A DNA stretch of 64,000 bases from positions 97,340,001-97,404,000 of the forward strand of contig OZ024740.1 in assembly GCA_964016885.1 (NCBI GenBank). The letters run 5' to 3'. Positions 28,763 to 30,106 of this stretch are shown here, one piece after another. A program made the position numbers and the translations under genes. Under the pieces are notes generated by a model, which did no database searches, was not told the DNA's origin, and saw nothing but the letters and a program-made list of their open reading frames with translations. The DNA is from Eledone cirrhosa (lineage: Eukaryota). The stretch's first letter is position 1; the number at the start of each line of letters is the position of its first letter.

Positions 28763-30106
28763 ATGTCTGGAAAGCAGCACATGAAATCAACAGAATCAGA
28801 AAGAATTCTAAAGGAGATATCATCGAAATTATCAACACTTATCACGATGATGGACACACAATGGTCTATTTTAAAGGAAATAGAAAAACAATCTACAGAC
28901 GGAAAACTTATAACTGAACATATAAACTCTGAAATTAAGAATTTAGCTGAAATTATACCAACAGTTATCAAAGATACAAGAGAAAGCCTACCACAACCCC
29001 CTTGGATGTCAGAAATAAACGAAAGAAATTTGGAAAACAAAACACATCGAATAAGAAAAGAAATGTGGAAGATATGGAAAAAATTCCTTAACATAAGAAA
29101 ACAAAATTTCTGGAAAGCATACAAATGCGAAAAATGGGTCGAAACACATTCGAAATGGCTCTCTCTAACGGCACCCATACTCCCTCATAAATACCTAATT
29201 ACAGAAATTGCAGGAGAACCAGAAGAAGAAACAAAACTCCGATGGGAACTTACATTGACAAAATTCAGGACCGACATCTCCATTTCTGAATGTAAACAAT
29301 CCCGCTACAAAGCCAGATATGAAGCTATTGATGACCAAGTTGAAATTTCAAAGCTAACGACTGGTATTATAGCTGAAAAACTACGAGAACTATGGATCGG
29401 AGATATCTCAAAAGAAGAAAACAAATCAAGAAAGGTATGGCAGCAGAAACAATTATTTCTCGACGAATATGCTGCAAATTACGGTAAAGACTCTGGAACC
29501 CTGAGAAAAAGCATTAAAAGTGGACAATCTCATCAACACAACATACGCCAGAACACGTGCCAACACAAACACTCACCTTACCTTGAATCAAAGAAGAACT
29601 ACGGTAATAACTCTTCGCTTTTTCTACAAAAACACCCTATCGCACACAACATGAACAAAAAGCACAAACACGATAGATACTCCTTTGACCAGACCATGAG
29701 AAGTAGTAAAACCAGGAGATCATTCTCAAGATCTCAACAGAGACTACCAACAAGGAATGTGGAAACAAAACGTAGAATAACCAGATCACTCTCAAGATCT
29801 CAACAGAGATTGCCCACAAGAAACTGGACGAAAGAACGATCTAAACCTGAAAGCAAACCTAGGTCATTTCCCCATGTTGTTAAAAATAATGCTAACAGTA
29901 AGAAAAACAATATACAGAATACCAAAAATAGGACAAAATACATAACGAAACCAAATATAATATCACGACCAAAAGTTCATCAAGCGAACACCAACAGGAA
30001 TATAAATCCTGAACAGAGAAAAATCCATTTTTTAACGTCAGGACAACAAAAACAGGAAAAAGAAAAACTCCAGGAGGAAACATACCCAAAACAACTGTAC
30101 ACGTAG
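28763..30106 (+). CDS. PLE ORF1 (447 aa): Trp-rich helical domain plus basic R/S/K/N-rich tail
   Basis: Intact ORF between the pLTR and RT; aligns by eye with 42768-43706. Confidence 0.85.
   Translation: MSGKQHMKSTESERILKEISSKLSTLITMMDTQWSILKEIEKQSTDGKLITEHINSEIKNLAEIIPTVIKDTRESLPQPPWMSEINERNLENKTHRIRKEMWKIWKKFLNIRKQNFWKAYKCEKWVETHSKWLSLTAPILPHKYLITEIAGEPEEETKLRWELTLTKFRTDISISECKQSRYKARYEAIDDQVEISKLTTGIIAEKLRELWIGDISKEENKSRKVWQQKQLFLDEYAANYGKDSGTLRKSIKSGQSHQHNIRQNTCQHKHSPYLESKKNYGNNSSLFLQKHPIAHNMNKKHKHDRYSFDQTMRSSKTRRSFSRSQQRLPTRNVETKRRITRSLSRSQQRLPTRNWTKERSKPESKPRSFPHVVKNNANSKKNNIQNTKNRTKYITKPNIISRPKVHQANTNRNINPEQRKIHFLTSGQQKQEKEKLQEETYPKQLYT

Follow-up and report, generated by a model that had tools for sequence, protein, structure and literature searches.

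A predicted helical ORF1 protein, probably coupled by a −1 frameshift to the reverse transcriptase of a Neptune-type Penelope-like element in Eledone cirrhosa

The open reading frame described here (ORF1) is best read as the upstream gene in a two-gene, Neptune-type, endonuclease-containing (EN+) Penelope-like element (PLE). It is predicted to encode a helical, basic-tailed protein that probably coats and organises the RNA of the element; a minority of this protein would be fused to the reverse transcriptase-endonuclease (RT-EN) by a −1 frameshift. We give this reading as a whole a probability of about 0.65. The role of ORF1 in an RNA particle is held with moderate confidence.

The frame lies in a stretch of 64,000 nucleotides of the Eledone cirrhosa genome (contig OZ024740.1, positions 97,340,001 to 97,404,000, forward strand), which is called the window below; all positions are those of the window. 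The window is AT-rich animal DNA, rich in (TA)n tracts and PLE fragments. The features discussed are listed in Table 1.

Table 1. Positions of the ORF1 regions, the ORF1/RT junction, and the surrounding element features in the window
Feature	Positions	Strand	Basis or remark
ORF1 of family A, unit 2 of tandem array	28763..30106	+	447 aa + TAG; ATG at 28763, TAG at 30104-30106, from the open reading frames of the window
N-terminal heptad helices, aa 11-75, predicted coiled coil	28793..28987	+	AlphaFold, H11-43 and H45-75
Conserved helical core, aa ~80-239	29000..29479	+	AlphaFold
Basic low-complexity tail, R/K/N/Q/S-rich	29495..30025	+	Composition, pI
Slippery heptamer T TTT TTA of family A, ORF1 frame (His-Phe-Leu), predicted −1 site	30028..30034	+	
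RT-GIY-YIG frame	30013..32324	+	−1 to ORF1; opens 5 codons before slip site
IINLS motif of RT frame	30115-30129	+	
3′ UTR/pseudo-LTR common to successive units	28137..28762	+	blastn, intact unit against window
Minimal hammerhead-like motif CUGAAGA...GAAA, stems I and II	28522..28560	+	Motif scan, fold
Head-to-tail array of family A	25068..41787	+	5′-truncated unit, three full units, 3′-truncated unit
Family B copy, 5′-truncated ORF1 and broken RT-EN	42750..46072	+	
Slippery heptamer T TTT TTA of family B	43787..43793	+	

The unit length of the family A element is 4.19 kb, and ORF1 in its genomic copies is mostly 449 aa long. Further family A slip sites in the array are found at 25843, 34216, and 38401. 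Units 1–3 of the array (25068-40698) are 99.5–99.9% identical, units 2 and 3 without a mismatch in 4188 nt, and all three carry identical RT breaks; either a dead copy was recently amplified in tandem, or the assembly is at fault here. In the window's family B copy, ORF1 is missing ~80 codons at its start and is interrupted early by a TGA at 43704-43706; an intact family B ORF1 elsewhere in the genome encodes 436 aa. At 3229-3776 lies a separate fragment of the family B pseudo-LTR, a short part of which is inverted. A third ORF1 family, C, is present in the same genome. The original prediction held that families A and B share one protein on the strength of aligned motifs, and this likeness is borne out: the quoted motifs are present in both families, and residues 105–260 of A align with residues 17–176 of B by BLASTP (31% over 160 aa, pairwise E 2e-19). 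With the intact family B genomic copy, the likeness reaches the N-terminus, from the first helix on.

The frame after ORF1 encodes an RT that carries an endonuclease of the GIY-YIG type at its C-terminus (Pfam RVT_1, E 2.6e-6; GIY-YIG, E 3.6e-5). In the window copy this frame is broken by indels and one stop. All three family A genomic copies that were fetched combine the 449-aa ORF1 with an open 775-codon RT-EN frame, and one of three two-frame family B copies has a full RT-EN frame of 784 codons. Intact copies carry two overlapping frames, not the canonical single RT+EN ORF. A natural family B copy (L023, G000:C1:238048799) has an indel just before the slip site described below, which brings the remnant of ORF1 together with RT-EN in a single frame of 1183 codons. 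A C-x4-C-x2-C linker of the Zn-finger-like CX2-5CxxC type precedes the endonuclease in families A and B, its spacing being compared by eye with the rows of Fig. S2 of Craig et al. 2021. Pseudo-LTRs and tandem insertions are present, as in EN+ PLEs. The hammerhead-like motif of family A is located 236 nt upstream of the ORF1 AUG. Its loop is a palindromic GUAC in genomic copies and in unit 4 and GCAC in the copy listed in Table 1; it gave no Rfam match, and the scan that found it detected no such motif in family B.

The element resembles the Neptune EN+ PLEs, as the passages of Craig et al. 2021 (PMC8557442) on them describe, in the order of RT and GIY-YIG, the C-x4-C-x2-C linker, the pseudo-LTR tandems, motif 4(B) G-T-A-M-G...A-P-x-Y-A-N as in DreriNep1, the (TA)n surroundings, and, in family A, a candidate hammerhead-like motif. 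It differs from the Neptunes of those passages in having a separate ORF1 of ~400 aa that overlaps RT-EN in the −1 frame. Judged by its sequence motifs, the element is a Neptune-type EN+ PLE.

Several other repeats in the window should be noted. Family A is interrupted at 41790-42420 by a tandem pair of ~310-nt repeats that carry a hammerhead-like motif and are possibly a retrozyme; positions 42290-42365 match Rfam HH9 with 28 bits and E 0.002, under the curated score. Further hammerhead-like CUGA-GA...GAAA motifs from other repeats occur at 61788 (−), 24312 (−), and 47759 (+). Other PLE fragments on the − strand (17061-19269, 5178-7092, and 56540-58308) contain motif 4(B) F-D-I-T-M-G-S, like the Hydra clade rows of Fig. 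S1 of Craig et al. 2021, and one of them lies between inverted arms of ~1.4 kb (15604-17019 and 19977-21391).

The AlphaFold model of ORF1 residues 1–246, calculated with 142 rows, contains six helices and no strands (pLDDT 93.3, pTM 0.74), in line with the helical nature originally proposed. The core consists of a helix, a 33-aa helix, a P-I-L-P-x-K-Y loop, a 47-aa helix, and a 39-aa helix. Ahead of the core, a heptad pattern is found in residues 16–40, with hydrophobic columns at 16, 19, 23, 26, 30, 33, 37, and 40. A profile search against the PDB gave only coiled-coil-like matches (designed and GCN4-type) at residues ~12–100. The family A tail contains 49 K+R against 10 D+E in 203 aa, is poor in hydrophobic residues, and has a pI of 11.5, and the pI of the family B tail is 10.8. 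Across homologues the tail is rich in N, R, Q, and S and net positive in 83/85, with a median length of 151 aa and a median pI of 10.7. The tail had been described as basic and non-alignable between the families; its basic character stands, whereas it is not wholly unalignable, as both families end on H-F-L, the trace of the slippery site. The tail may be disordered and bind RNA, and the anatomy as a whole, by analogy with Gag and L1 ORF1p, suggests that ORF1 binds RNA and self-assembles.

Structure searches for ORF1 gave little. Foldseek against PDB and viral structures found no match at E ≤ 0.001, and the best match in the VIA search (Z 9.1) was generic, with residues 1–83 barely covered and residues 96–245 resembling generic three-helix bundles at background Z. 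The best ESM Atlas score, 0.76, is uninformative. These negatives do not by themselves make the fold new. A capsid fold is not among the Foldseek (PDB and viral) and VIA matches listed, and no CCHC zinc knuckle was found in ORF1, which has three scattered Cys only. No RRM is apparent in the strandless model of residues 1–246; the tail lies beyond the modelled part and is of low complexity.

Structurally, the core comes closest to three-helix bundles of the Habc type (1s94_B, Z 8.7, rmsd 6.2, 117 residues aligned), and the conserved Trp, Arg, Glu, and Asp residues could make a protein-binding surface. Both observations would suit a different function within the same architecture, in which ORF1 is a helical targeting protein or an adaptor to membranes or host proteins, similar to syntaxin Habc or ESCRT-III, and the tail serves as a linker or as a signal for localisation. 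We regard this function as unlikely, since the Habc-type matches are at the background level for helical bundles and the length and nearly constant positive charge of the tail speak against it. An excess of ORF1 produced by frameshifting, as reasoned from gag-pol, would likewise fit a stoichiometric structural role. The RNA-coating function is retained below.

A profile built from three ORF1 sequences matched 959 clusters (50% identity) at E ≤ 1e-3 and 486 at E ≤ 1e-10; a word search with a single protein found 1 homologue. Among the best 150 of the 959 clusters, 3 exceed 500 aa, and nearly all are stand-alone proteins or fragments. Most of the 30 clusters looked up are unnamed metagenome proteins on contigs of 1–8 kb, and the named homologues are from octopus and bivalve (Mytilus, Octopus sinensis, Tegillarca, and O. 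bimaculoides). As first supposed, no domain was recognised: Pfam gave no match better than E 0.056 for A and B. Over 142 members, 18 Pfam families matched one member each and none matched more than one. None of 89 stretches on viral contigs was confirmed. Residues W105, R112, P141, E152, R160, D190, and W213 (L020 numbering) are kept in at least 90% of the 142 rows. The dN/dS value between families B and C is 0.18 over 145 codons of the core, 0.26 in the N-terminal helices, and 0.47 in the tail, all being simple pairwise counts near saturation; the L054/L056 core gave pN 0.26 with pS saturated at 0.82. These values indicate purifying selection, as the original prediction would require, and ORF1 is a real, selected, and previously unnamed protein family.

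A few database entries (P0007 and P0013) fuse ORF1 to unrelated host-like sequence, as might be expected if ORF1 were a captured or domesticated host gene. They look rather like gene models that have absorbed a fragment of a transposable element. The genome search found more than 1600 candidate places for family A (1647, of which 150 were scored, 150/150 at 89–100% identity) and 2048 for family B (150 scored), ORF1 is intronless and lies within a unit bounded by pseudo-LTRs, and Pfam offers no named host family for the 142 members. A host origin of this kind is barely credible, and ORF1 is treated as a gene of the element.

At the junction between ORF1 and RT, the end of ORF1 reads ...CAT TTT TTA..., where the heptamer follows the X XXY YYZ register. 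Relative to ORF1, RT lies in the −1 frame, which opens 5 (A), about 10 (B), and 7 (C) codons upstream of the slip site. It contains no Met upstream of the conserved IINLS...SKGLKF; its first Met falls inside or after this motif, at index 47 in A and 69 in B, and none is found in the first 75 codons in C. Within the same genome the heptamer is kept at 17/17 A loci (the best-scoring ones outside the window), 22/24 B loci, and 11/12 C loci, and the RT motif is open in the −1 frame at 17, 21, and 11 loci, respectively.

The same arrangement is found in metagenomes. Loci were sought via the RT, because no part of the 142-row ORF1 alignment is sufficiently conserved to scan contigs with, and 80 were kept from 329 RT relatives. 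ORF1 matched at 5/80, and at 2 more it is cut by the contig end. All 7 have U UUU UU(A/G) in frame (U UUU UUG in 2) with RT at −1, and their RTs form one clade with support of 98/99 in the tree without reference Neptunes. L067 and L090, two close RT loci that are both broken and have 4 kb of upstream sequence, gave no ORF1 match, and several other close loci are too short. Linkage to a Neptune-type RT-EN, which the original prediction proposed to check, is supported by the loci and by the clade of the RT tree.

The trace of the heptamer is also visible in the proteins. Among the 87 homologues of at least 330 aa in the 155 stored proteins, 74 have FL in the last 45 aa, compared with 5 and 7 in the two preceding stretches. 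Neither FL nor FF is present there in 11/87, which include 2 fused gene models and 4 proteins with FL further in. The residue before F always corresponds to an NNU codon and is K, E, Q, M, or W in 0/74 (21.5% expected), as a U-ending codon is required at the slip site; the homologues share ancestry, by which such expectations overstate significance. This signature in the sequences suggests that a −1 frameshift at U UUU UUA very probably joins ORF1 to RT-EN. By analogy with gag-pol, it is likely to yield much ORF1 and little ORF1-RT-EN. Contigs of three sequencing runs of unspecified kind contain no joint at the junction, which has no bearing on expression.

A U-run followed by AG could also act as a 3′ splice acceptor, so that RT-EN would be made from spliced RNA and ORF1 separately. 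Introns are known in PLEs according to the Fig. 1 legend of Craig et al. and part of PMC4209133, G, E, D, A, or V follows FL in 52/74 homologues, which makes UUAG possible, and a Mytilus gene model, P0087, joins ORF1 to RT just beyond HFL. However, that join is an unverified gene model, and AG is impossible at this position in 22/74 homologues. L059 has no AG for over 70 nt, and the next AG in A, L055, and L061 lies at differing distances and RT phases. Splicing also does not predict the constant −1 relation or a zone free of stops below 12 codons, and is considered very unlikely. RT-EN could also be made if ribosomes reinitiated, or initiated internally, at a codon further downstream or at one other than AUG, FL then being a protein motif; this is highly improbable. 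ORF1 does stop near the RT start, and ATG or ACA directly follows the stop in L054, L056, L059, and L062, but that ATG sits in the ORF1 frame and not in the RT frame, and a downstream AUG would remove IINLS...SKGLKF. A protein motif, moreover, leaves the NNU-codon rule and the U UUU UUG variants unexplained. The frameshift accordingly remains the preferred account of the junction.

No downstream hairpin was found among nested structures in A or B (z +1.0 and +0.3), suggesting that slip efficiency may be low, and z is below −2 in 1/9 loci of the ORF1 clade. The position of the ORF1 stop should be noted. No stop occurs less than 12 codons from the Phe in the 74 homologues, where the density of stops in that frame would predict 38.6, and 23/74 have the stop at exactly 12 codons with unrelated intervening residues. 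The distance is 25 codons in family A and 22 in C. The 23 cases are not independent, because they are clustered on the tree in two subclades (7 changes, against 19.8 when shuffled), and the floor at 12 codons is more robust than the peak. With a stop at 12 codons, a terminating ribosome would be 33 nt in front of another at the slip site, a distance of approximately one ribosome length. It is conceivable, at somewhat less than even odds, that a ribosome queue behind the nearby stop stimulates the slip. Alternatively, the floor could be due to a constraint acting on the opening codons of the RT frame, or to an RNA element so far unrecognised. An explanation of the stop at 12 codons as a by-product of the IINLS codons holds for family C and fails for B, L055, and L062, and a periodicity of ~11 codons in the stop distances (12, 23–25, and 32–34) was dropped, as the classes follow clades. 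In the part of Bhatt et al. (PMC8168617) concerned, the stop position tunes frameshifting via pseudoknot refolding, a route that differs from the queuing considered here.

Other two-frame PLEs were observed among the metagenome loci. A second EN+ set (L065, L066, L070–L072, L079, L080, L082, and L084) has a different long ORF1, to which the ORF1 profile gave no match, and has an in-frame U UUA AAC where the two frames overlap at −1, with a stop directly after it in five. A GACC...GGUC hairpin follows this heptamer in L072, L080, and L082. ORF1 is 600–750 aa long in L065, L073, L084, and L089, and three of these end in an I-G-D-S-N domain, which we take to resemble SGNH/GDSL esterases. The slip heptamer is U UUU UUA in L073 and L089.

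The metagenome RT scan also gave single-ORF elements of the Penelope/Poseidon type with a ~160-aa domain fused ahead of IINLS. The model of this domain (14 rows, pLDDT 92.5) consists of H6-17, H19-50, a loop with a 3-residue helix, H67-109, a 2-residue turn, and H112-154. The ORF1 core is predicted to have a matching run of H80-100, H102-134, the same loop, H154-200, a 2-residue turn, and H203-241. The two are alike in their position ahead of IINLS, the predicted helix layout, and the I/L-P-R/K loop; the Penelope/Poseidon domain differs in being fused in frame, without extra heptad helices or a long basic tail. HHalign registered both on the loop over 91 columns without significance (probability 2.7%, E 0.017), the score of 18.4 lying inside the block-shuffled controls (max 20.0 of 40). 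HHalign of ORF1 with other PLE ORF1 types was not significant, the probability being 0.2% for 4 ORF1s of EN-less metagenome elements. Column-hydrophobicity correlations between ORF1 and the fused domain are weak (0.14 and about 0.3). The loop motif, which was defined post hoc after both families had been inspected, is found in 83/141 cores, 8/14 fused domains, and 3/4 EN-less ORF1s, with shuffled means under 1. In the VIA top 50, 17 chains are common to ORF1 and the fused domain, as counted by eye without a control of unrelated bundles. Start offsets are 82–87 in the six common chains compared, and the common matches are generic three-helix bundles with Z about 9, under the helical background.

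On single-ORF proteins, PF28514/DUF8422 apparently falls on the N-terminal motifs of RT and not on the helical domain (P0180 has neither). In a Neptune-like single ORF of 1049 aa (L060/P0177), a linker joins the helical domain to RT and EN, all in a single frame, which is the layout of the predicted ORF1-RT-EN fusion. The RT tree fits either state, fused or split, as the older one. In the scheme proposed here the three-helix core is probably the same domain as that fused ahead of RT in single-ORF Penelope/Poseidon elements, and we lean slightly toward homology of the two. A wider and rather doubtful extension is that PLEs share a helical 'Gag-equivalent' domain, which is fused to RT in Penelope/Poseidon and which a large clade seen in molluscs split off as ORF1, gaining a coiled coil and a tail that binds RNA. 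In that clade the ORF1:RT ratio would be set by a −1 frameshift that needs no RNA structure and is due to a queue behind a stop one ribosome length downstream.

The following course of events is proposed. The RNA would be cut at the pseudo-LTR hammerheads, and translation would start at the ORF1 AUG. Most ribosomes would terminate 12–42 codons beyond the slip site to release free ORF1, while a minority would slip and give an ORF1-RT-EN protein of ~1194 aa (426 + 768 aa). As no common downstream hairpin is present, the queue behind the nearby stop may help the slip. The heptad helices would allow free ORF1 to co-assemble with the fusion protein, the tail would bind RNA non-specifically, and the enzyme would be delivered in cis within an ORF1-rich particle for target-primed reverse transcription.

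The proposed scheme has parallels in retroviruses and LINEs. The gag-pol slip heptamer of HIV-1 is U UUU UUA. ORF1 shares with retroviral and LTR-element gag-pol this heptamer and the predicted excess of the upstream ORF over the fused polymerase, and the Gag analogy is strengthened by the gag-pol-like −1 frameshift signature; ORF1 differs in having no capsid fold among the matches listed and no CCHC knuckle, protease, or downstream stem-loop. LINE-1 ORF1p has a coiled-coil N-terminus and an RRM and is encoded upstream of RT as a separate cistron. ORF1 resembles it in the predicted coiled-coil N-terminus, the position upstream of RT, and a likely role in an RNA-protein particle, but lacks an RRM and shows a frameshift signature to RT in place of a separate cistron. 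By this comparison, ORF1 would work like Gag or L1 ORF1p and belong to neither family. It is most likely a structural RNA-binding partner of the Neptune-type RT, coupled to it by a gag-pol-like frameshift.

Among PLEs, those portions of Craig et al. 2021 (PMC8557442) that deal with the canonical EN+ elements give them as single-ORF, and the Fig. 1 legend states that a frameshift with a pseudoknot can separate ORF1; the legend of the preprint likens Coprina to Athena. PLEs are a single RT+EN ORF or two ORFs without EN in the relevant part of PMC6431247, and a part of PMC13159263 describes two-ORF Coprina with coil and disorder in ORF1. Athena/Terminon and two-ORF Coprina, as these excerpts present them, are like the element here in an upstream ORF1 with coiled-coil and disordered regions and separation by a frameshift, and differ in lacking an endonuclease and in sitting at telomeres. 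The legend adds a pseudoknot; the heptamer here is followed by no stable structure among the nested ones modelled. An ORF1 with a frameshift has already been published for PLEs, apparently for those without an endonuclease. The portions consulted of PMC6515669, PMC4209133, PMC3846280, PMC5408684, PMC5718144, and 10.64898/2026.07.22.740005 contain nothing on an ORF1 of EN+ elements. In the literature searched, neither this ORF1 nor a two-ORF frameshift of EN+ elements is described, though PLE papers of 2006, 2007, and 2017 may contain such a description.

These results change the description of EN+ PLEs as single-ORF elements, and consensus RT ORFs of the ORF1 clade come out without their N-terminus when annotation starts at the first AUG. 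If the stop spacing reflects queuing, the junction would be a natural, widely sampled eukaryotic −1 frameshift without an RNA stimulator. PLEs are the closest mobile relatives of the telomerase RT, and ORF1 offers a foldable, family-wide candidate for the structural protein of their RNA-protein particle.
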